Below, one piece after another: positions 13,811 through 47,643 of a stretch of 64,000 nt of DNA (its first letter is position 1; each line of letters begins with the position of its first letter). This DNA comes from Candidatus Staskawiczbacteria bacterium (GTDB lineage: Bacteria > Patescibacteriota > Minisyncoccia > Minisyncoccales > Staskawiczbacteraceae), in the NCBI GenBank assembly GCA_041661545.1, contig JBAZUH010000001.1, forward strand, positions 544,148 to 608,147, written 5' to 3'. The notes under the pieces are model-generated. The model searched no databases. It was not told where the DNA came from and was given only the letters and a program-made list of their open reading frames with translations. The position numbers were made by a program, and so were the translations under genes.

Positions 13811-14566
13811 TTATATGCCTGTATTTTGATTTTCTTGTGACTCAGTAAAGTTTCCATTTTCAAATTCAACCTCCTCACCCACTTGCGAAGACACACCTTT
13901 TTTTGGCACCTGCAATTGTTTTTGAAGATGGTTAATTTGAGATGATAACAATTGTTTTGTGTTTCTTGCATCGGTTATTATTTTTTCAATTAAACCTTGT
14001 AAGAACTTTTCTCTTTCTACTAATTCATTATCTTTGGCCTTATAATCAATAAGCAATGATTCATATTTCTTAATCCAGTCTTTTTTCTCAGCCCGGTCTT
14101 CTTTTAATATTTCTAAAAACTCTCGGTCAACGGTTATTTGATCGGGCGCATAAGCGGTGGGCTCGGCGCTTCTGCGATTTGGCTTAGGTTCTTCTGACCG
14201 CTTAAGCGGTTCTTCTAACTGACTAGATATTTCACTAGACTGTTCCGGTACCACCGCATAAGCGGTAGGCTCGGCGCTTAAGCGGTTTGGTTCAGGTTCA
14301 TCTGACCGCTTAAGCGCTTCTTCAGACCGCTTAAGCGGTACCGCATAAGCGGTTTCTTTTGCTATAGCTTCTAACTCTTTAACCCAAAAATCTTCTTTTA
14401 AAAGAATAACATTCCCCACTCCTTTGTCATACCTTTCAGTTAAAACTCCCTCTAATTTTTGTGGGTCTACCAATCTATACTTTCTAATTCTTCTTCTAAT
14501 CCTAACATCTGGAACTTCATATTTTTGAATAAATTCTTGTATTGTTAAAAATTCGTTATTATCCAT
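13811..14566 (-). CDS. HTH-like (excisionase/MerR-type N-terminus) protein with an internal tandem repeat and a C-terminal coiled coil
   Basis: 251 aa. N-terminus FLTIQEFIQKYEVPDVRIRRRIRKY. Two repeats of about 36 aa (..LKRS[DE]EP[EK]PNR.SAEPTAYA..). The CDS contains 4 perfect and 3 degenerate copies of the palindrome found upstream. Confidence 0.5.
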   Translation of the reverse strand: MDNNEFLTIQEFIQKYEVPDVRIRRRIRKYRLVDPQKLEGVLTERYDKGVGNVILLKEDFWVKELEAIAKETAYAVPLKRSEEALKRSDEPEPNRLSAEPTAYAVVPEQSSEISSQLEEPLKRSEEPKPNRRSAEPTAYAPDQITVDREFLEILKEDRAEKKDWIKKYESLLIDYKAKDNELVEREKFLQGLIEKIITDARNTKQLLSSQINHLQKQLQVPKKGVSSQVGEEVEFENGNFTESQENQNTGI

Positions 14567-14588
14567 TTTTTTTGTTTTATTTTTATAC

Positions 14589-14724
14589 CGCTTAAGCGGT
14601 AGGGGTGACCGCTTAAGCGCTTTTAGGCACCGCTTAAGCGATACCGCTTAAGCGCTTTTAGGTACCGCTTAAGCGATACCGCTTAAGCGCTTTTAGGTAC
14701 CGCTTAAGCGATACCGCTTAAGCG
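14589..14724. repeat. Array of 8 perfect CGCTTAAGCG palindromes (alternating 21/14-bp spacing)
   Basis: Copies start at 14589, 14610, 14631, 14645, 14666, 14680, 14701 and 14715. The higher-order unit is ACCGCTTAAGCGATACCGCTTAAGCGCTTTTAGGT (35 bp). The array lies directly upstream of the 13811-14566 gene. Confidence 0.95.
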
Positions 14725-14774
14725 ATTATTGATTAATTCTATCAACCAGATAAAGTGATGTCAACCTTAACAAT

Positions 14775-15957: not shown

Positions 15958-16093
15958 CTTGTTTCTAGCTTAGCATTTTCAAACAAGCTAGTCAAATAGT
16001 TATGCACAATTATTTGTCTGCTATTTTAAGAAAAAATATGTAAAAAAAGAGCGCCATATTTGTGAGATAGACGCATAACAGCAAGAAAGGATT

Positions 16094-17518
16094 TCACGGA
16101 ATGTCCGTAGATTTGGCTATCGCTTGGGCGGGGTTTTGAGCCTTCCATGCGCCCGAATCAGTAGAGCTGTAGACATATCCGCCCATGACCGTCGCAGTCA
16201 TACTGCGAAAGTCTACGGATGCGGACACGTCAGACCAATTCTGCTTGTCGGCAACCGGCTCCCAATCCACCCCGAAATTGCCAGAGGTGTAAAGCGAGCC
16301 TCCAGACTCTGCAGCCAAGAATCGACGACCATCGCCCGAACACTTAATGGCCACCCATTTCCGAACATTGTCGGTTAACCGTGGTTGCCACGTCTGCATA
16401 AAGTCAGTGGAGATGTAGATATATCCACCATTTACAGTGGCGCCCCAAAACTGGGCGTTATAATTGGTTGTTAGGTCCGTCCAATCGCGGGACTCGCCAA
16501 CGGGCTTCCATGTCTGGCCCCCGTTGTAGGACGCATAAAGCCAACTATTGGAGGCTGCTACCCCCCGAAATTGACCACCAAAATCCATCTCGCCAGCCAC
16601 CCAATTCGGGCCAGCAAACCCGGTCGTCTCCCAGCTATCCCCCCAATCATACGTCTGCCAGATGTATCCACCTGGATCAACGGCCATCAGAAGTTGGCCA
16701 TCATCAGAAGTTGCTACGGACCTCCACCGGATTTTCAGGTCGCCCTCATAGGGCAAGTCGTATGCTTTCCAGGTCTGACCATAGTCAGCGGACCCATATA
16801 ACTCTCCATCAAGGGTCCCTATAATCTGGTTTTGGCCATAATAGGACACGGCGACGCAGGAAGGTTTATCTATATCTACGGTCCGCCAAGTGCTCCCGCC
16901 ATCGGCGGAGACATAAACTGGCGCGTTGCCAGCGATAAGCGTCCTATATTTTCCGTCACCAGACATGGAAGCACCGTTCCATGCAAGACTGGGACTGCCC
17001 ACGGCAGGTGAGGGGGGATTGGGTGTGTTACCACCATCGCCACCACCACCATTGCCACCGCCAGGACCTCTGCTCCCATCTCCTCCACCAATGGGGCCGA
17101 AAGAATAAAATGGAACAGATTCCTTGGTCTTATGCCTGATTATGGGGCTCCAATTAGCATAAGCCGTTGGTGTCGTCGCAGGATTAGATGTTGTTGTGCG
17201 CGAACCAAAGTTGGTTCGTGCAATGCTCGCCTGCGGGGCAACAACCTCTGCTCGAGGAATATTCGTGCCAGCTCTCTTTAAACTGACTTGGCCTTCGTTG
17301 TGTCCACTGGATTTCAAATTCCAGGGCTTGTATTTGTTCGCGGTCAAGCCTTGACCCGACCTAAACAATTTCAACGACGGCCTTTCGGGCTCGCTGAGCC
17401 ACACTACAAAAAAGATCGGCACTAGCAGTGCCAGTAGAGTAGCGCCCAGTTTCTTGAGCCCTATCTTCTGCAAAACCGCCGTCGCGGTAGAAATCTTCTC
17501 AAGGCTTTTTGTGTTCAT
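16094..17518 (-). CDS. Membrane-anchored Asp-box (BNR) repeat beta-propeller protein, on a GC-rich island
   Basis: Seven SxDxGxTW-like boxes (SADGGSTW, SADYGQTW, TYDWGDSW, SYNGGQTW, STDFMQTW, TSGNFGVDW, STDSGAW). Gly/Pro linker and TM anchor. ATG at 17518 is preferred over the GTG at 17581 because AAGGAG sits 10 nt upstream. Confidence 0.7.
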   Translation of the reverse strand: MNTKSLEKISTATAVLQKIGLKKLGATLLALLVPIFFVVWLSEPERPSLKLFRSGQGLTANKYKPWNLKSSGHNEGQVSLKRAGTNIPRAEVVAPQASIARTNFGSRTTTSNPATTPTAYANWSPIIRHKTKESVPFYSFGPIGGGDGSRGPGGGNGGGGDGGNTPNPPSPAVGSPSLAWNGASMSGDGKYRTLIAGNAPVYVSADGGSTWRTVDIDKPSCVAVSYYGQNQIIGTLDGELYGSADYGQTWKAYDLPYEGDLKIRWRSVATSDDGQLLMAVDPGGYIWQTYDWGDSWETTGFAGPNWVAGEMDFGGQFRGVAASNSWLYASYNGGQTWKPVGESRDWTDLTTNYNAQFWGATVNGGYIYISTDFMQTWQPRLTDNVRKWVAIKCSGDGRRFLAAESGGSLYTSGNFGVDWEPVADKQNWSDVSASVDFRSMTATVMGGYVYSSTDSGAWKAQNPAQAIAKSTDIP

Positions 17519-17604
17519 GGCTGACTTTCTCCTTTCCAAAAAGTTTTCAATGCTAGAAGTGGTTGACAAAATGTCTTCCACGTTGCTTCTAGCGTGCTAC
17601 TTCA

Positions 17605-17633
17605 ATAATGCTATTTAAAGTGCATCTTGTCAA
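17605..17633 (-). promoter_or_regulatory. Putative promoter of the BNR gene
   Basis: The minus strand reads TTGACA, 17 nt, CATTAT. Confidence 0.45.
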
Positions 17634-17674
17634 GGGTTTTTCACTTGCTTCTATATATATGATATAATACACAA

Positions 17675-18535
17675 ATGAATTTAACTTCTCCAACCATAAT
17701 AAAAGAACTTCTTTCAAAATATAAAACCCGGCCTTCAAAAGGATTGGGGCAAAATTTTTTAATAGATAAAAATGTTTTAAGAAAAATTATTGAAGCTTCA
17801 AATATAAAACCAACAGATATTATTTTAGAAGTGGGGCCGGGCATTGGCATACTAACTCAAGAATTAGCCAAACATGCAAAAAAAGTTATAGCAATTGAAA
17901 AAGATTTTACAATGTGCGAAGTTTTAAAAGAAACTTTGTCTGATCTTAAAAACATTCAAATTGAAAATTGTGATATTTTAAAATTTATTGAAAATTGGAA
18001 ATTGAAAATTGAAAATTATAAGGTAGTTGCCAACATTCCATATTATTTAACTTCGCCATTAATTAGAAAATTTTTAGAAAACCCACCAGGTGGGGAACAG
18101 CCACAAGAAATAATTTTAATGATACAAAAAGAAGTTGCTCAAAGAATTTGTGCAAGCCCGCCAAAAATGAGTTTGCTAGCAGTGTCAGTGCAATTTTATG
18201 CAGAACCTAAAATTATAAGTTATGTTACAAAAAATTGTTTTTGGCCTGCACCCAAAATTGATTCTGCAATAATAAATATCAAGCCCAAAAATAATTTTAA
18301 TAAAGAAATAGATGTTGATGCATTTTTCAAAGTTGTTAAAGCAGGTTTTTCGCAACCAAGAAAACAACTTGTGAATAACTTGACTACCTTAAAATATTTA
18401 GATGGTGTAAAATTAACAAAAGAAGAAATTTCTAATTGGCTTTCTAAAAATAATTTAAAATCTAATCAACGGGCCGAAAGCCTAACAATCAACGATTGGG
18501 AAAATCTAACAAACAGTTTTTTAACTTTAAAATAG
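17675..18535 (+). CDS. rsmA: 16S rRNA (adenine1518/1519-N6)-dimethyltransferase
   Basis: 286 aa with GQNFLIDKNVLRKI, EVGPGIGILT and VVANIPYYLTSP. Confidence 0.92.
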   Translation: MNLTSPTIIKELLSKYKTRPSKGLGQNFLIDKNVLRKIIEASNIKPTDIILEVGPGIGILTQELAKHAKKVIAIEKDFTMCEVLKETLSDLKNIQIENCDILKFIENWKLKIENYKVVANIPYYLTSPLIRKFLENPPGGEQPQEIILMIQKEVAQRICASPPKMSLLAVSVQFYAEPKIISYVTKNCFWPAPKIDSAIINIKPKNNFNKEIDVDAFFKVVKAGFSQPRKQLVNNLTTLKYLDGVKLTKEEISNWLSKNNLKSNQRAESLTINDWENLTNSFLTLK

Positions 18536-18539
18536 AATC

Positions 18540-20525
18540 ATGTTTCAACAATTCTCATTTCTAAAAAATAAATATTTATTTTTCACTCTTTTCTGTTTTA
18601 TTATATTACTAGGAGCATTAATGCCCGTACACGTCTTAGCCGAATCAAATGACAGTGCTGGCTGGGGTAATACAGGAGATAGATCAAAAATAATAAATCT
18701 ATTTACTTCTGCATCTCCTGATTCTTTCTCTCCCGAAGGTGGTTGGGATGCAACAACGTGGCCCAAATATTTAATTGGATATTTATTATTTTCAATCGTA
18801 TGGCTAGCCTTCAAAATAGCTGCTTTAGCACAGTTGTTATTATCTTATGTATTGGGTGTAATTGTAAGCTTATCAATAACCAAAGATCCTAATTGGCTTC
18901 CAATATGGGGCAGCCTTAGAGATTTAGGAAATATGGTTATTGTATTGGGATTCGTAGTAGTAGGCATTGCTACATCTCTAAGATTTAAAGACTATGAAGC
19001 TAAAAAGATCTTGTTGCCTTTGATACTAGTTGCTATTCTAATCAACTTCTCCGGATTAGTTTGTGGATTAATTATAGATGCGTCTAATTTAGTAACTACT
19101 GGATTAATAGAGGGAAGTGAAGCTTCCATGATGCCATATAACGTCTTACAACAAATGATTCTCGTTAGCTCGTGCGTGCATACCACAGGACACGATGCGG
19201 GGCCCGATGCATATGTTGAAGTATCAACGTCAGTAAACACCCCCTCGTGTATTTCAACCGAAAATTATGATAAAGATCTTAAAATATTTATAGCAATATG
19301 TTGTTTATGGATGATTTTGTACTTAGCCATAGGTCTTACATTTTTATATATGGCAGTTTTACTTTTGGCAAGATATGCCATTTTAATAATGTTATTTATA
19401 TTATCTCCTTTAGCTTTCACTTTCTGGGTTTTTCCAATTACTAAAAAATTGTGGCAAGAGTGGTGGAATCATTTTGTAAAATGGTGTTTTGTTGGAGTCT
19501 ATGCATCGTTTACTCTCTACATAGCTACTACCATTATAACAAAAGTGCCCATCGTGGGAGGCACTGCAGACAACCTGAATAGTGACTTATGGCAACTAAC
19601 TCTTGTATATTCTATTGCAATAGTATTTTTGATTGTTGGATTTAAAATGACCGTCAGCAAGGTTGGAGGAGCCGCTGTAACAGCTATTTTGGGACTAGCA
19701 ACTGGTGGCGCGGCTTTGGCCGGTAGAGCAACCCTTGGTGCAACCAAACTTGCTGGAAGAGGAATCGGAGCCGGAGCCAGAGCATTAGATAATAAAGCTA
19801 CTGGCGGAAAGGTTACTTCGGCGATAGGCAACATGGGTAGGAAGGTTGGTAGCAGTACCGGAAGATTTCTGGATGCTATGGCAGGAACTCCTGGTGCTAG
19901 AGCTGGAGGTGTAGCGAAAGAATTCTCAGCAGGCTCTGATAGAATTGGAGATATGGATTTAGCCAGCCAAGTTAAATTAGCTTCAGGCAAAGGAATGGGT
20001 GGCATGGCAAGAACAAAAGAAAGAGCTGAGGCAGTACAAGCCTTGGCAAAAAGCGGAAATCTTTGGAGAATTAGCGATGATATAAATGAACAATCAAGAG
20101 CCGTTAATTTTGCAGATAAATATATGCAAAGCAAAGGGATAGATGCCACTAAATTTAGAGGGGACGTTAGCAAGAATGCTCCTGTGCTAGAAGCATACAA
20201 TCGTCCTATTGTAGAAAAAATTCAACAACAGCATCCAAATTGGAGCCCTGCTCCCGACGCAAGCTTGGGTGGATTAACTCGAGCTCAACATGAAGCGGTT
20301 GTACGTGCAGTAGCGAGAATGCCAGAAGACGGTTTAAATGCCAGCACGGCAAAATCAATGCATCATTCTGCTATAACAGCAGCGGGAGCTAGAATGAACG
20401 ATAGAAAAAAACAAACATGGCAAAAAGCTTCTTATAATGATATGCGCCAAGAGGCGCTGGCTATGAATGCTGGGCCAGAACAAACCGCCTTGGCAGAAAG
20501 AGCAAGAGCAATGTTTGATTTATAA
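18540..20525 (+). CDS. Polytopic membrane protein, TrbL/VirB6-like by architecture
   Basis: 661 aa. Signal peptide (..VHVLAES), at least 6 TM helices, Gly/Ala-rich segment, hydrophilic C-terminal third. No motif-level proof. Confidence 0.5.
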   Translation: MFQQFSFLKNKYLFFTLFCFIILLGALMPVHVLAESNDSAGWGNTGDRSKIINLFTSASPDSFSPEGGWDATTWPKYLIGYLLFSIVWLAFKIAALAQLLLSYVLGVIVSLSITKDPNWLPIWGSLRDLGNMVIVLGFVVVGIATSLRFKDYEAKKILLPLILVAILINFSGLVCGLIIDASNLVTTGLIEGSEASMMPYNVLQQMILVSSCVHTTGHDAGPDAYVEVSTSVNTPSCISTENYDKDLKIFIAICCLWMILYLAIGLTFLYMAVLLLARYAILIMLFILSPLAFTFWVFPITKKLWQEWWNHFVKWCFVGVYASFTLYIATTIITKVPIVGGTADNLNSDLWQLTLVYSIAIVFLIVGFKMTVSKVGGAAVTAILGLATGGAALAGRATLGATKLAGRGIGAGARALDNKATGGKVTSAIGNMGRKVGSSTGRFLDAMAGTPGARAGGVAKEFSAGSDRIGDMDLASQVKLASGKGMGGMARTKERAEAVQALAKSGNLWRISDDINEQSRAVNFADKYMQSKGIDATKFRGDVSKNAPVLEAYNRPIVEKIQQQHPNWSPAPDASLGGLTRAQHEAVVRAVARMPEDGLNASTAKSMHHSAITAAGARMNDRKKQTWQKASYNDMRQEALAMNAGPEQTALAERARAMFDL

Positions 20526-20543
20526 ATATTAATTAATAATATA

Positions 20544-21167
20544 ATGGTAAATAATCAACAAAAAATTATTATTTTTGAGAATCAAGGCTCTAAAAGCATA
20601 TGGGCGATTATTTCAGAAGTTTTAAAAGATAATGGGATGGAAGAAACAGCCATTGATTTTTTCAAAAAAGTGGACGAGAAGAAAATACCATTTTCAAGCA
20701 TAATATATAAATTATCTAGAAAACTTGCTCAAGAAGAAATTACAGAAGAAAATTTTGTTACATCAATCAAAGACCAATTAAAAATTGAGCAACAAGTTGC
20801 TGAAAAAATATTAAAAGATGTAAAAGAAAAAATTTTACCGCTGGCTAGAACGCTTGAAAAAGATGAACTAGTAAAAGATGAAACAATTAGCACTGTGCCA
20901 CAGAGCCTAAAAACAATAAATAAAAATTTCTCACCGGCAACAGAAAAAAATAACATAAATATTTCTGGCTCAGAAATTTTGGCTAATGAGCCAATAGATT
21001 CTTTGCCAAAAAATGAAACTCAAAATATTGCAAACACAATTACTCCTGCGACCATTGAAACACCAACAAAAAGAATTAGAAAACCTTTACCTAAAAAACC
21101 TTTTGTACCAGAAACTCAACCAACACAACCTAGCAAGCCAGATTCTTATAGAGAACCTATAGAGTAA
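20544..21167 (+). CDS. Hypothetical protein with Pro/Thr-rich C-terminus
   Basis: 207 aa, follows the VirB6-like gene on the same strand. Confidence 0.45.
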   Translation: MVNNQQKIIIFENQGSKSIWAIISEVLKDNGMEETAIDFFKKVDEKKIPFSSIIYKLSRKLAQEEITEENFVTSIKDQLKIEQQVAEKILKDVKEKILPLARTLEKDELVKDETISTVPQSLKTINKNFSPATEKNNINISGSEILANEPIDSLPKNETQNIANTITPATIETPTKRIRKPLPKKPFVPETQPTQPSKPDSYREPIE

Positions 21168-21180
21168 AAGCAGTAAACAA

Positions 21181-21209
21181 CCCCACACCAATTTCGGGTG
21201 GGGTTTTTT
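21181..21209 (+). terminator. Terminator after 20544-21167
   Basis: CCCCACACC-AATTTC-GGGTGGGG followed by TTTTTT. Confidence 0.7.
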
Positions 21210-21213
21210 ATTT

Positions 21214-21270
21214 AAAAAAAGGGGCGAGCTTCGTGGTGTCGTGTAAAAAACGACACCATCGAAGCCCGCC
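21214..21270 (-). terminator. Long-stem terminator of the GC-rich SPFH-like gene
   Basis: GGCGAGCTTCGTGGTGTCGT / ACGACACCATCGAAGCCCGCC form an imperfect stem of about 20 bp. The T-run is on the minus strand. Confidence 0.6.
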
Positions 21271-21289
21271 TTTGGGTTATGTTCTGAGG

Positions 21290-22468
21290 TTACAGGCCGT
21301 CCAAATCGTCCGGCCCCAACTCTATCGCTGGCGGAGGCGAACCTCCACCAGGCTGATTGCGTCTGTCACCACGACGATTCCCCCCGTCTCCCCGAGCCAA
21401 TGGCTGAAGAGCATTGCCGAGTTCGCGTGCCAACGTAACACCGGCTGCGAAGTTGGCCTCAATCGGTTGGCCACCGCTGGTGACATCAAACTTGGTGAAT
21501 CCGCGACCAGCGAGCGCCTGCGATCGTAGTTGCTCAAGCGCCTGTTTATGTTGAGCATATTCACCACTTCTTTTCAGCTTGGCAACGAGTTTCTTCATCG
21601 CCACCGAATCCGACGAGTCAACTCCCGCGAGCCTTGCTTCTTCGGTAATCCATTCTTGCATGGCAAGCTGGACCGGGCCAAAAACCCGCGCCTTTTCGCC
21701 TTCAGCCAACAATTGCTGTTTGCTTTTGGCCTCCAAGGCTTCCTGATATCCGGGCTGGTATCCCACATCTTCAACGATGACAGAATTTTCCAGAATCCGA
21801 AGACCCCAGTCATTTTCCATCGTCGTGAAAACAGGAAGCGATCCCTGATTAACCAGGTCTTGCCAAAGCTGGGCGCCATTACCCCTGGCGGCTTGAGCAC
21901 GCTCTTGTGAACCGCCACGAACCCATGCTCGCAACGTTGAATCCATCCGCCGTATAACCTGAGCGCTAACGTCGCGGGGTGCCACAAACAGCCATTTGTA
22001 CAGGTTGACGATTCTCATGACGGAAACGAATTTCACGTCAAGTGGAACGCTCTCAGGAGCTGCCGTTTCTGCTTTAGAGATCATGGGTTCAGGAGCGACG
22101 TTTCCGACGCGGACATGAATGCCCGCACCAAACATGTCGGCACTTCCATTCTGCTGAGCGTATCGAACGGCCGAGACAAACGGCCATAGATAAATCACCC
22201 AGCCCCCAAAACGGCACATAAACCATGACCCCTGGCCATAGCCGTCGGGGTAATCTCCCTCGACAACGTTGCCGTTTTCATCGAAGCCATGCCCCCTGAA
22301 ATTCATCCCTAGGTAGCAGAAGCTACCGAAGCTGAGAAAGGCAATGGCTGTGCCTTCTCGGATGATTGCCACCCTAATAATACGCAACGCCCAGAGGAGG
22401 AAGATTGTGAAAATCATCCACCAAAGGTGATCGCTCAGCCAATCGAACACTGAATATATCGCTTGCAT
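21290..22468 (-). CDS. Membrane-anchored SPFH/band-7-like protein, on a GC-rich island
   Basis: Start taken at MQAIYSVFDW (ATG at 22468). N-terminal TM. The segment IIREGTAIAF...VKFVSVMRIVNLYKWLFVAP.DV resembles an SPFH fold pattern. Coiled-coil and Gly/Arg-rich tail. Confidence 0.45.
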   Translation of the reverse strand: MQAIYSVFDWLSDHLWWMIFTIFLLWALRIIRVAIIREGTAIAFLSFGSFCYLGMNFRGHGFDENGNVVEGDYPDGYGQGSWFMCRFGGWVIYLWPFVSAVRYAQQNGSADMFGAGIHVRVGNVAPEPMISKAETAAPESVPLDVKFVSVMRIVNLYKWLFVAPRDVSAQVIRRMDSTLRAWVRGGSQERAQAARGNGAQLWQDLVNQGSLPVFTTMENDWGLRILENSVIVEDVGYQPGYQEALEAKSKQQLLAEGEKARVFGPVQLAMQEWITEEARLAGVDSSDSVAMKKLVAKLKRSGEYAQHKQALEQLRSQALAGRGFTKFDVTSGGQPIEANFAAGVTLARELGNALQPLARGDGGNRRGDRRNQPGGGSPPPAIELGPDDLDGL

Positions 22469-44187: not shown

Positions 44188-45243
44188 TTAGAATAGGCCG
44201 CTTTGCTTGCGGAGATGGCCTAAGCCGAGGTGGTTGTAGGCAAGTGCAGTGGCCATTCGGCCTTTTGGGGTGCGTTCAAGTAAGCCACATTGCATTAAAT
44301 AGGGTTCATAAATATCTAAAATTGTTTCTTCTTCTTCCATAGCAGCTGCTGCTAAAGATTGCAATCCAACTGGGCCTCCTCCAAATTTTTCTATTAAGGC
44401 TAATAAAATATTTCGGTCGCTTGGTTCTAGGCCCATTAAATCTACCTCTAAAGAATTAAGGGCATGTTCGGCAATTGCTTTTGTTATTATTTCAGCATTT
44501 TGAACTTGGGCAAAATCTCTTACTCTTTTTACAAGCCTGTTTGCGACTCTTGGGGTAAACCTTGAGCGCTCGGCAATTGCTGTTATGGCTTCGGGTTCCA
44601 TTTTTATTTTTAAAAGTTTTCCAGATCTTTCAATTATTTTTTTAACATCTTCTATATTATAAAAATTAAGTTGAAAAGTGGCACCAAATCTGTTTCGTAG
44701 GGGAGCAGATAATAACCCAGGGCGAGTGGTGGCTCCAATTAAAGTAAACTTAGGCAATTTTAGCTCCATTGTACGGGCCATGGGCCCTTTGCCCAAAATT
44801 AAATTTAATTTATATTCTTCTAGTGCAGGATATAAATACTCTTCAATAGTTTTGTTAATTCTGTGTATCTCATCTAAAAACAAAACATCACCCTCTGACA
44901 AATTTGTTAAAATTGCAGCTAAATCTCCTGCTCTTTCTAGGGCAGGGCCAGAAGTAGATTTAATTTTTTTACCCATTTCGTTGGCCACTATATAGGCTAG
45001 GGTGGTTTTTCCTAAGCCTGAGTTTCCATAAAGCAATAAATGGTCTGGACTTTGACCTCTTTGTTTGGCTGCAGTAATAATTACTTGTATATTTTCTTTA
45101 ATTTTATCTTGACCAACATAATCATGCCAAGAAGTCGGCCTTAAAGCCGAATCTAGAGTTTCATCCGTTGCCTCGCCAAAGCTTTTAGCGGAGGCGGGTT
45201 CTTTCCTGTTGTTGGTTGGTGTAGGGGTTGACATATGATACAA
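44188..45243 (-). CDS. ruvB: Holliday junction branch-migration helicase RuvB
   Basis: 351 aa with GNSGLGKTTLA, LFLDEIHR and RFG..F.L.FY. Confidence 0.95.
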   Translation of the reverse strand: MYHMSTPTPTNNRKEPASAKSFGEATDETLDSALRPTSWHDYVGQDKIKENIQVIITAAKQRGQSPDHLLLYGNSGLGKTTLAYIVANEMGKKIKSTSGPALERAGDLAAILTNLSEGDVLFLDEIHRINKTIEEYLYPALEEYKLNLILGKGPMARTMELKLPKFTLIGATTRPGLLSAPLRNRFGATFQLNFYNIEDVKKIIERSGKLLKIKMEPEAITAIAERSRFTPRVANRLVKRVRDFAQVQNAEIITKAIAEHALNSLEVDLMGLEPSDRNILLALIEKFGGGPVGLQSLAAAAMEEEETILDIYEPYLMQCGLLERTPKGRMATALAYNHLGLGHLRKQSGLF

Positions 45244-45308
45244 ATAATGATATACTTGAAGATATTTAAGCTATGCGCAAAAAAGCGCTATTATTTCAAC
45301 TAAAAGAC

Positions 45309-45445
45309 TAAGCGGTTTTAGAGTTGGAGGTATTTATTTGGATTTACCTTAGCTTCGGATAATTCTGCTCCGGCTCAATTATTCCTCAGGCAAATCTTTG
45401 TTTATGTCCCAGACATAAGAACACCTCCAGCTCCAAGACCGCTTA
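45309..45445 (+). other. 137-nt element closed by 23-nt imperfect inverted repeats (structured 5' leader RNA or MITE)
   Basis: TAAGCGGTTTTAGAGTTGGAGGT ... ACCTCCAGCTCCAAGACCGCTTA. On the plus strand this gives 20 Watson-Crick pairs, 2 G-U pairs and 1 A-C mismatch. Internal hairpins GGATAATT/AATTATTCC and TTATGTC/GACATAA. Confidence 0.6.
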
Positions 45446-45475
45446 ATAGGTGGCTCCTTTACAACCAATCATGTC

Positions 45476-45895
45476 ATGAAAAAGCCGATAATGTATCTAG
45501 CGATAACCACACTCTCTGCATTACAGCCCATTCGTTTTGTAGCCATAGCAATCTCTCTTGGTATAATCGGGGGTCTTGCACAATATATATGGTTACTTAA
45601 GACACACGGGGCAAAGAAGATTCAGCGAGATGATGATACTGACATAGATGTGAGCGTTAAAAGGCTCATTGTGTTGGAACTCTTTGCATTTGCATCAGCG
45701 ATCACGGTGTTAACATATATTGGGGAGACGCCTTCCAATTGGGAAAGCTTTGTAAGGTCTACCCAATCTCTGTCCTTAACTTGGTTTTTCGGCACATTCG
45801 TTCTTGTGAGTGCCATACGTTTCTGGCATCCTGTAACTCATGACCTGCGGTCTCGGCGAGACTGTGCAAGCGACGAAGATTCTTCAGGCTCTTAG
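45476..45895 (+). CDS. Small 4-TM membrane protein, elevated G+C
   Basis: 139 aa with hydrophobic helices and an acidic, Ser-rich tail. Confidence 0.5.
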   Translation: MKKPIMYLAITTLSALQPIRFVAIAISLGIIGGLAQYIWLLKTHGAKKIQRDDDTDIDVSVKRLIVLELFAFASAITVLTYIGETPSNWESFVRSTQSLSLTWFFGTFVLVSAIRFWHPVTHDLRSRRDCASDEDSSGS

Positions 45896-45939
45896 TAACT
45901 TATAGTGAATAGGGCTTCTTTTTTTGTAAAATTACTTTA

Positions 45940-46290
45940 TTATTTTTGTTCGGGTGGGGGATTTTTGTTTGGATCTTTTCCTCCTTCATGGTGTGCTAAA
46001 TATATTTCAGCCCTTATAATTAGTCCTTCAGCATATTTTTTGTATTCGGGGCCGATATATTCAAGAAGGGGCTTCAATTCATCAACAGTAGCTTTTAGAG
46101 CATCTTCTTGATTTTTATAGCCGTATGCACCACCCAAAAGAGGGTTATCTAAATTTATTTTTCCCTTTTCCACATTTTCCATAAATAAATAAAGTGAAGA
46201 CAATGTTATTGATGCTTGTTGATGTTTATCTATTCCCTCATATTTATCTGGTTTGTCTTCTGATGGGCTTTCGCCTAGTTCTTTTTCCAT
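45940..46290 (-). CDS. Hypothetical protein downstream of the PilB-like ATPase
   Basis: 116 aa, 24 nt after the ATPase stop on the same strand. Confidence 0.45.
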   Translation of the reverse strand: MEKELGESPSEDKPDKYEGIDKHQQASITLSSLYLFMENVEKGKINLDNPLLGGAYGYKNQEDALKATVDELKPLLEYIGPEYKKYAEGLIIRAEIYLAHHEGGKDPNKNPPPEQK

Positions 46291-46314: not shown

Positions 46315-47643
46315 TTATTCAGATATTTTATTTTCATCTTCTTCAACAACTCTTAAAACTTCTTCCATAGTTGTTTTTCCTTCAACAACATCTATCAACC
46401 CAGATTGATACATCGTTACCATACCTTTTTTAATAGCCAACTCTCTAATAGAAGAAACTGGGGGATTGGTTAAAATAAATTTTTCCATTTCAGAATCAAC
46501 TAAAAATGCTTCAAACAATCCTTGCCTGCCTTTATAGCCTGTAAAATTACAAGCTTCGCATCCATTTTCTTTAGCTTTAGCTATTTTAACAGCATCTAGG
46601 TCAGGGATTTTAATTGTTTTAGATAATGATTTTAATCCTTTTTTTATTTCTGCTAATTCTGTTGTGCTAGGCTCCACTAAGGTAGAGCACTTTTTGCATA
46701 CTTTTCTAAGTAATCTTTGGGCAACAGCCATTTTTAAGCCTGATGCAATAGATGAAGCATCTACGCCAAGATCTACAAGCCTTGGAATGGTTCCAGCTGC
46801 GTCGTTGGTGTGTAATGTAGATAATACTAAGTGGCCGGTTAGGGCTGCTTGCAGGGCTATTTTAGAGGTTTCTAAATCTCTGATTTCACCAACTAAAATA
46901 ACGTCTGGGTCTTGCCTTACAATAGATCTTAATCCATCAGAAAAATCATATCCTTTTTCTGGAGCCACTTGTGTTTGAGAAACTCCTTGTAAATGATACT
47001 CAATTGGATCTTCAATAGTAATAATTTTAATTTCTGGGTCTTGTATCTTTTTTAAAAAAGCATAAAGAGTAGTTGTTTTACCAGAGCCAGTGGGGCCAGT
47101 AACAATTATCATTCCATTGGGTTTTTCAATTTCTTTTTGGAAAGTTTTATAAAGGTCATCCCTTAAACCCAAATCATCTAAAGAAATTAAACTTTTTGGG
47201 TTTAAAATTCTCATAACTATAGATTCACCATATTCTGCTGGTAAGCTAGAAGTTCTAACCTCTATAAGTAAATTATCAACCTCAATTGTATATCTACCAT
47301 CTTGAGGTTTGTCTTTAATATTTAGTTTTAATTTTGAAAGAAGCTTTAATCTAGAAATTAAGTGGCCATATGTGGCGTGGTCAAAGAAAATAACATCTTG
47401 TAATATGCCGTCCAATCTAACTCTTAATCTAGCTTCTTTTTCTTGTGGTTCAATGTGAATATCAGAAACATCAAGTATTATTGATCCATATAAAATAACA
47501 TCTAATAAATCTGTAACACTGGCAACAAGATATTCTTCTATTTTTTTCTTAAATCCACCAATGTCTTTAACTTGGCTTTTGATTTCTTCAATAATTTTGG
47601 GCGAAATTGTTACTAGCCCAAGTAGCTTTTTATTATCTGCCAT
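46315..47643 (-). CDS. PilB/GspE-family secretion ATPase (short form)
   Basis: 442 aa with Walker A GPTGSGKTTT, VGEIRD, His box LSTLHTNDA and C-terminal CKKC..CEAC cluster. Confidence 0.9.
   Translation of the reverse strand: MADNKKLLGLVTISPKIIEEIKSQVKDIGGFKKKIEEYLVASVTDLLDVILYGSIILDVSDIHIEPQEKEARLRVRLDGILQDVIFFDHATYGHLISRLKLLSKLKLNIKDKPQDGRYTIEVDNLLIEVRTSSLPAEYGESIVMRILNPKSLISLDDLGLRDDLYKTFQKEIEKPNGMIIVTGPTGSGKTTTLYAFLKKIQDPEIKIITIEDPIEYHLQGVSQTQVAPEKGYDFSDGLRSIVRQDPDVILVGEIRDLETSKIALQAALTGHLVLSTLHTNDAAGTIPRLVDLGVDASSIASGLKMAVAQRLLRKVCKKCSTLVEPSTTELAEIKKGLKSLSKTIKIPDLDAVKIAKAKENGCEACNFTGYKGRQGLFEAFLVDSEMEKFILTNPPVSSIRELAIKKGMVTMYQSGLIDVVEGKTTMEEVLRVVEEDENKISE

Follow-up and report, generated by a model that had tools for sequence, protein, structure and literature searches.

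What is the 137-nt inverted repeat that lies ahead of ruvB in this Candidatus Staskawiczbacteria genome, and what could it do there? The repeat occupies positions 45309-45445 of the window (the whole stretch of 64,000 nt that was analysed), and the initial annotation read it either as a structured leader RNA of the gene at 45476 or as a MITE flanked by TA, with outer ends that match half of a palindrome found elsewhere in the window. The reading preferred here is a different one: the element is very probably a conserved small-RNA gene on the plus strand, the body of a structured RNA of about 150 nt, lying opposite ruvB. We infer its transcription and the positions of its ends from promoter and terminator motifs. 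Absent from Rfam 15 and previously uncatalogued, the ruvB-adjacent small RNA is a real conserved gene of a CPR lineage. Three genes around it in the window lie on the minus strand. The ruvB gene itself (44188-45234; Pfam RuvB_N, AAA_lid_4 and RuvB_C) has a start codon that overlaps the -35 hexamer of the small RNA, and encodes a protein 100% identical to one from a Candidatus Staskawiczbacteria (CPR/Parcubacteria) bacterium. Upstream of ruvB and co-directional with it are a 116-aa ORF (45940-46290) and a gene for a T2SSE/PilB-like ATPase (46315-47643).

Within the window, a repeat finder delimits arms of 26 nt (45309-45334 and 45420-45445) that are 85% complementary and have 85 nt between them. 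The 23-nt pairing of the arms that had been reported earlier was borne out when read by hand: on the plus strand it comprises 20 Watson-Crick pairs, 2 G.U and 1 A.C. The arm sequence is unique within the 64-kb window (a second match is absent from shuffled windows too). Folded as RNA, the 137 nt reach -54.8 kcal/mol on the plus strand (z = -8.3) and -54.6 kcal/mol on the minus strand (z = -7.1), and in both cases none of 200 shuffles was as stable. The predicted fold has the overall shape of a Y. Its closing stem, P1, joins a 5′ arm (45309-45331) to a 3′ arm (45423-45445, the terminator stem in relatives) through 22 pairs, 19 of which show compensatory changes. A single-stranded, A/U-rich linker, J1/2 (45332-45339), whose sequence varies among relatives, leads to the apical stem P2 (45340-45397), which is irregular, contains internal loops and two invariant G.U pairs, and is capped by C(UCCG)G with the tetraloop at 45369-45372. 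The small hairpin P3 (45402-45418) reads UUAUGUC-CCA-GACAUAA. All these parts are given in plus-strand sense, and P2 and P3 correspond to the two inner hairpins of the initial annotation.

Is the element peculiar to this genome? Loci of relatives were reached via RuvB homologues (exact look-ups of the window RuvB and of a 139-aa ORF next to the element gave no record). Contigs with a RuvB 81-92% identical to that of the window carry the same element in the intergenic region ahead of ruvB, and it was found there in every RuvB-guided relative for which DNA was available. The gene order in these contigs is T2SSE ATPase, sometimes a small gene, an intergenic region of 190-300 nt and then ruvB, all on one strand, and alignments of the element (A1 and A2) show loops that are near-identical among relatives and stems with compensatory changes. 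A metagenome scan with the pattern TGTCTGGGACA-N20-45-GAGCCGGAGCA returned at least 120 stretches, 114 distinct variants among them, with one match per contig. Three of the matching loci (L047, L103 and L107) are chance matches, none of which fits the covariance model R1, and those in L047 and L103 sit in GC-rich, coding-like DNA. In all, more than 110 contigs of Staskawiczbacteria-like CPR bacteria from metagenomes carry the element, one copy each.

Copy number and position are equally regular. With filters off, R1 gives a single match in the window (148.5 bits, plus strand; unrelated matches reach at most 21 bits). In 97 related contigs, which add up to 758 kb, it finds the element once each. 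In tblastn searches with the window proteins, the order orf235, T2SSE, element, ruvB recurs in practically all loci whose flanks are long enough, the distance from the T2SSE stop to the element is 6-50 nt in most loci, and this syntenic position is fixed over RuvB identities of 63-93%. The element occupies the same place in all RuvB-guided loci with DNA and in the pattern-found loci with flanks, the latter having been chosen for carrying it. In one sub-lineage (L008-L010, positions 1677-2204) an NYN-domain (RNase-like) protein is encoded between the T2SSE and small-RNA genes. Viral contigs gave no match to the element, and among GTDB genome contigs the arm pattern gave three unrelated single matches, the chance level for 19 specified bases.

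Nor does the element belong to a catalogued family. At the gathering threshold, Rfam 15 finds only tRNAs in the window, and permissive scans of the window (E<=10) and of 10 relatives yield no family that matches the element; the sub-threshold matches are scattered, one per family, and none is common to the window and the relatives. The Rfam comparison proposed in the initial annotation thus ends with no known family matching the window or its relatives. In the literature on 6S or structured RNAs of CPR/Patescibacteria we found no description of this ruvB-adjacent RNA. Several other candidates were considered and rejected. SRP RNA, suggested by GAGCCGGAGCA on the ruvB-sense strand, has no Rfam match here, would lie on the wrong strand relative to the promoter and would lack a GNRA loop. 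A hammerhead-like core (CUGAGGA...GAAG) on the ruvB-sense strand fails on its "GAAG" loop, which varies in sequence and length, and a mini-ORF in P3 (AUG UCC CAG ACA UAA) on changes that covary as stem pairs. The invariant upper part of P1 is not over-represented as a motif in the window, which argues against a DNA-uptake sequence. tigRNAs, the stem-loop RNAs of the TIGR-Tas systems that have been reported from Staskawiczbacteria, form arrays near tas genes and have box C/D motifs and variable spacers (bioRxiv 10.64898/2026.09.09.750476). They resemble the present RNA in being structured small RNAs of the same bacterial group; the latter, however, is a single unit, conserved throughout, with neither a UGAUGA nor a CUGA box in RNA sense and no variable spacer. 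Its neighbours are T2SSE and ruvB, and the flanking genes gave no Tas/Nop-type Pfam matches.

Covariation at homologous loci was the check that the initial annotation had put forward for an RNA. Alignment A3 comprises 70 non-redundant copies in plus sense. RNAalifold predicts 47 pairs from it, 31 with compensatory changes, and an explicit count over the 48 pairs of the three-way junction finds 98.1% of cells canonical across the 70 copies. Compensatory double changes occur in 32 of the 48 pairs and in 286 cells, a level that none of 500 shuffles reached; when partners were slid along A3 as a control, at most 49% paired. The 22-bp helix of P1 has no bulges; its lower half covaries freely, and its upper part (UUGGAGGU/ACCUCCAA) is near-invariant among copies. 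Twelve pairs in helices 2 and 3 (P2) show compensatory changes, and a base pair of P3 covaries as well (AU in 59 copies, GC in 8, UA in 3). The UCCG-capped tip of P2 and the P3 hairpin are invariant in A3, and five distinct RuvB-guided loci agree. The metagenome pattern fixes 22 nt of P2 and P3, so this loop invariance is partly a matter of ascertainment, and the five loci found through RuvB are the only distinct ones free of pattern bias. As a side observation, the invariant upper stem forms a GGAGGU/ACCUCC duplex that resembles a Shine-Dalgarno/anti-Shine-Dalgarno pair; a Shine-Dalgarno-like motif stands upstream of only 4 of the 51 long ORFs in the window.

Which strand is transcribed? Three independent features point to the plus strand: a conserved promoter, an asymmetric T-tract and two invariant G.U pairs. 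First, an exact TTGACA-N14-TGn-TAnnnT lies between ruvB and the element on the plus strand in 94 of 98 distinct loci, with TATAAT (46 loci), TACAAT (14) and TATACT (14) as -10 hexamers. In the window, the -35 hexamer TTGACA (45228-45233) and the extended -10 TGaTATACT (45248-45256) match in 11 of 12 positions at a spacing of 17 nt. The complement of the -35 makes ATGTCAA, the ruvB start codon and the next four bases; ATGTCAA overlaps the -35 in 91 of the 94 promoter-bearing loci, and in 84 the RuvB ORF begins with it. The best candidates for a ruvB-sense promoter reach only 7-9 out of 12. Second, at least 6 T within the 9 nt past P1 are found in 84 of 103 loci on the plus strand and in 29 of 103 on the other, and P1 with its T-tract constitutes a predicted intrinsic terminator in the relatives, where it abuts the 3′ end of the upstream co-directional genes (the T2SSE side). 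The window itself has no T-tract directly past P1, its T7 being displaced to 45919-45925. Third, G.U pairs total 201 on the plus strand and 55 on the minus strand. Two of them are invariant in plus sense (alignment columns 40/98, in 69 of 70 copies, and 59/84, in 70 of 70) and would be A.C mismatches on the minus strand, so that the plus strand is favoured. The wobble pairs outside these two (62 against 55, and 73 against 65) favour neither strand. The initial annotation, which had argued from wobbles in the one sequence, was thus right about the strand, on an argument too weak to stand alone.

The stretch between promoter and P1 is the least constrained part of the locus. In the window a leader is predicted at 45264-45308, with a start near 45263-45264 judging from the position of the promoter. 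In relatives the gap from -10 to P1 ranges from 10 to 150 nt and is not alignable, which suggests that the leader is probably trimmed, and insertions of about 230-330 nt are tolerated in it in L017, L020, L109 and L129, which shows its sequence to be dispensable. Where the ruvB start is displaced (L028, L069, L092 and L128), the promoter keeps its place beside the RNA. Several peculiarities of this region may be recorded. The window-specific part of the leader holds a small palindrome, GCGCAAAAAAGCGC (45279-45292), that is absent from relatives. L017 has a MITE-like insertion with an 18-nt terminal repeat (GGAGTGTGGGATTCGAAC / GTTCAAATCCCACACTCC) on the ruvB side of the element, at a distance of about 10-300 nt, and L020 has one with a 19-nt repeat (CTGTGAATTACGAAATGCT / AGCATTTCGTAATTCACAG) in the same leader region. 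The inserts of L109 and L129, between element and ruvB, are GC-rich, apparently structured and about 330 nt long; after them the end of P1 is partly repeated (GGCTCTGAGCCGCTT), which suggests insertion into the stem with target duplication. In L069 and L092 (also L028 and L128), an insertion just past ATGTCAACCC moves the ruvB start to a downstream ATG and brings with it the start region of ruvB in inverted orientation (CAACCCTTCACC ... GGTGAAGGGTCAAG).

What, then, might the RNA do? We tentatively propose, at somewhat less than even chances, a role bound to the locus: a cis-antisense and terminator gate on read-through into ruvB. Transcription of the small-RNA gene would run head-on into transcription that continues from the pilB-like operon toward ruvB; P1, with its A and T runs on either side, would terminate in both directions; and abundant antisense RNA, together with RNA polymerase on the promoter over the ruvB start, would gate ruvB expression. 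In 31 loci the spacer between element and ATG measures 30-49 nt and is fully occupied by the small-RNA promoter. With the spacer so occupied and no conserved promoter of its own, ruvB is most likely transcribed through the element from the upstream operon. The overlap of the -35 with the ruvB ATG in nearly all promoter-bearing loci (91 of 94) would lend the gating idea further backing. A possible ruvB-sense extended -10 is present in the spacer of 26 of 98 loci, and ruvB may sometimes have its own promoter, which would count against a gate. The loops and upper P1 are also conserved beyond the needs of complementarity, which points to a possible partner, for instance a protein, and argues against a purely cis-antisense function. 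The dispensable leader would fit locus-bound and trans action alike.

Two kinds of known module invite comparison with such a gate. Cis-antisense and convergent-promoter modules of the CopA/RNAI type are likewise highly structured, have apical loops rich in G+C and are driven by a strong constitutive promoter; they oppose an mRNA that crosses them, and their promoter overlaps the start of the target gene. The ruvB-adjacent element differs in belonging to a chromosomal housekeeping locus, in having 5′ and 3′ ends that pair in a long closing stem of a three-way junction, and in a conservation above antisense needs, the overlapping ruvB-sense transcript being hypothetical. Bidirectional intrinsic terminators share with it an intergenic G+C-rich stem with an A-run before and a T-run after. 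In contrast to these, the stem of the element encloses 90 nt of conserved, covarying structure, its T-tract is markedly asymmetric, and one strand has a dedicated promoter.

A second possibility, which seems to us rather unlikely, is that the plus-strand RNA acts in trans as an abundant protein-binding RNA, for example a minimal 6S-type RNA that would imitate an open promoter and sequester the sigma-70 holoenzyme. In canonical 6S RNA a stem closes the molecule, the 5′ side then bulges out as a single strand, an apical stem interrupted by small internal loops ends in a terminal loop, and a hairpin faces the bulge (PMC8414754); the succession of P1, J1/2, P2 and P3 would fit that description. 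As described, 6S RNA is monocistronic, a rod of 160-200 nt in which two long helices flank a large central bulge, and made from a TATAAT-type promoter up to a rho-independent terminator; the ruvB-adjacent RNA appears likewise monocistronic, with a TATAAT-type promoter and a terminator. The near-consensus promoter would imply high abundance, the variable and dispensable leader would fit a processed stable RNA, and the strongly conserved upper P1 and loops suggest a protein partner. The setting is also reminiscent: the 6S gene of Firmicutes adjoins rarA, a gene for a recombination-related AAA+ ATPase, and ruvB is such a gene too. With 6S RNA (ssrS; RF00013) the present RNA would therefore share a sigma-70 promoter, an intrinsic terminator and strong synteny beside a gene of that kind. 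However, Rfam 6S models match neither the window (E<=10) nor 10 relatives (E<=5). The RNA is also small (about 137-150 nt, with a body of 135-137 nt against the 160-200 nt of 6S), J1/2 provides a bulge of just 8-9 nt, and P1 pairs perfectly over 22 bp, whereas the closing stem of 6S RNA typically has bulges. Finally, a GG at positions 4-6 of the 6S product RNA is reported to be conserved. A product whose template runs from J1/2 into P1 would have the sequence ..AUACCUCCAAC, without GG at 4-6; with an assumed start site, a putative template ..GGAGGUAUUUAUUU would give ..AAAUACCUCC, again with no GG.

Could the functional form be the opposite strand instead? The element would then be a structured intergenic or 5′-UTR element of a ruvB-sense transcript, or the terminator of the pilB-like operon, with no functional plus-strand RNA. 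This is improbable, in spite of several points that speak for it: the element lies 6-50 nt past the T2SSE stop and 30-130 nt ahead of ruvB, co-directional with both, the fold is equally stable on that strand, the variable wobble pairs do not separate the strands, and some T follows P1 there too. The perfect conserved promoter, however, faces the opposite way, the T-tract is far stronger on the plus strand (84 vs 29 of 103), and both invariant G.U pairs would there be A.C mismatches, which lowers the canonical cells from 98.1% to 93.7%. A 137-nt three-way junction with conserved loops also exceeds what a terminator needs.

It is very unlikely that the element serves the gene at 45476 as a riboswitch or cis-regulatory leader, a reading that goes back to the structured leader RNA of the initial annotation. 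Proximity speaks for this reading (the ORF begins 30 nt past the element and shares its strand), and the displaced T-tract makes read-through plausible. The 139-aa ORF (45476-45895, plus strand) is, however, found in this strain only. It is an ORFan with predicted membrane-like segments, no Pfam match, no match but itself among 5.8 billion proteins, and no counterpart at any other locus in tblastn searches of the relatives. It is part of an insertion of about 473 bp (45445-45918, plus strand; 43-47% G+C) that the other loci lack and whose junctions are marked by a 4-nt direct repeat, GCTT, at 45441-45444 and 45914-45917. The insertion falls exactly between P1 and the T-tract, where relatives have the T-run: their GCCGCTTTTTTTT stands directly past P1, and the T7 at 45919-45925 (plus strand) is the original terminator T-run, displaced. 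Two other assemblies (L133 and L134) have the same arrangement, 100% identical, so the insertion is not an assembly artefact. More than 100 relatives have nothing downstream on the plus strand; there the element ends in a terminator, past which comes the 3′ end of a convergent gene, and none of the Rfam cis-regulatory families matches. Since the gene at 45476 came with a strain-specific insertion, the element is not its ancestral leader; of the earlier claim, the structured plus-strand RNA with two inner hairpins stands and the origin as a leader of that gene falls. In this strain the 473-bp foreign segment has probably impaired termination. The insertion took the T-tract away from P1, so read-through is plausible here, and the small-RNA promoter plausibly reads into the 139-aa ORF. 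Elsewhere in the window, G+C-rich DNA occurs at 16001-18000 (46.5%) and 20001-22000 (43%; genome about 32%), probably the other "islands" of the initial annotation.

Hardly credible, too, is a role of the element at the DNA level, with its ends as half-sites for a 251-aa protein linked to the ACCGCTTAAGCGGT array. In the window the 8-nt identity is real: as had been noticed earlier, each of the outer 8-mers TAAGCGGT / ACCGCTTA is one half of the ACCGCTTAAGCGGT palindrome. The link drawn from it does not survive comparison: within the set of 70 relatives, TAAGCGGT is confined to the window itself and is a chance match. The other 69 have different outer P1 sequences (AAAACAGC, TAAGCGGC, TAAACGGC and so on), reached through compensatory substitutions. 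Outside the array the 8-mer occurs once, which is the chance expectation (base composition predicts about 0.6 per strand). No ACCGCTTAAGCGG-type palindromes were found in the related loci examined, and the 251-aa ORF has no Pfam match at all, HTH included. The palindrome itself, with one mismatch allowed, has 13 copies at 14197-14726: 5 lie inside the 251-aa ORF (13811-14566, minus strand), and 8 form a tandem array with a 35-nt period just upstream of it.

Last, there is next to no chance that the element is a MITE with terminal inverted repeats and an IS630/Tc1-like TA target-site duplication: the long terminal inverted repeats and the unit of about 140 bp do recall MITEs, and genuine MITE-like insertions exist nearby in L017 and L020, but the element is present once in the 64-kb window and once per contig in 758 kb (and once per contig among the at least 120 metagenome matches), holds a fixed syntenic position with compensatory substitutions that keep three helices, has no viral-contig matches and only chance-level ones in GTDB genomes, and lacks a conserved target duplication. 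The flanking TA/TA of the initial annotation dissolves into the T and A of the outermost P1 base pair, which is not conserved; the base before AAGCGG among relatives is T, G, A or C.

What remains is the small-RNA gene, and what it may mean for its hosts. CPR bacteria have tiny genomes, and we know of almost no experimentally characterised non-coding RNAs from them. A single copy per contig, covariation, a near-perfect promoter and a synteny fixed over more than 100 contigs mark this RNA as important to the bacteria that carry it. It is possible, if on balance doubtful, that it represents a new, CPR-lineage-specific class of housekeeping-grade regulatory RNA: a mini-6S-type mimic that would sequester RNA polymerase, or an antisense/terminator gate that would couple a pilus/DNA-uptake ATPase operon to RuvB, with its promoter inside the ruvB start codon. 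The RNA also provides a concrete family for annotation, for which a covariance model was built. The insertion in the present strain illustrates how the splitting of a terminator lets a strong small-RNA promoter capture a foreign ORF, and the overlap between that promoter and the start of ruvB suggests a link of small-RNA expression to recombination or DNA uptake.
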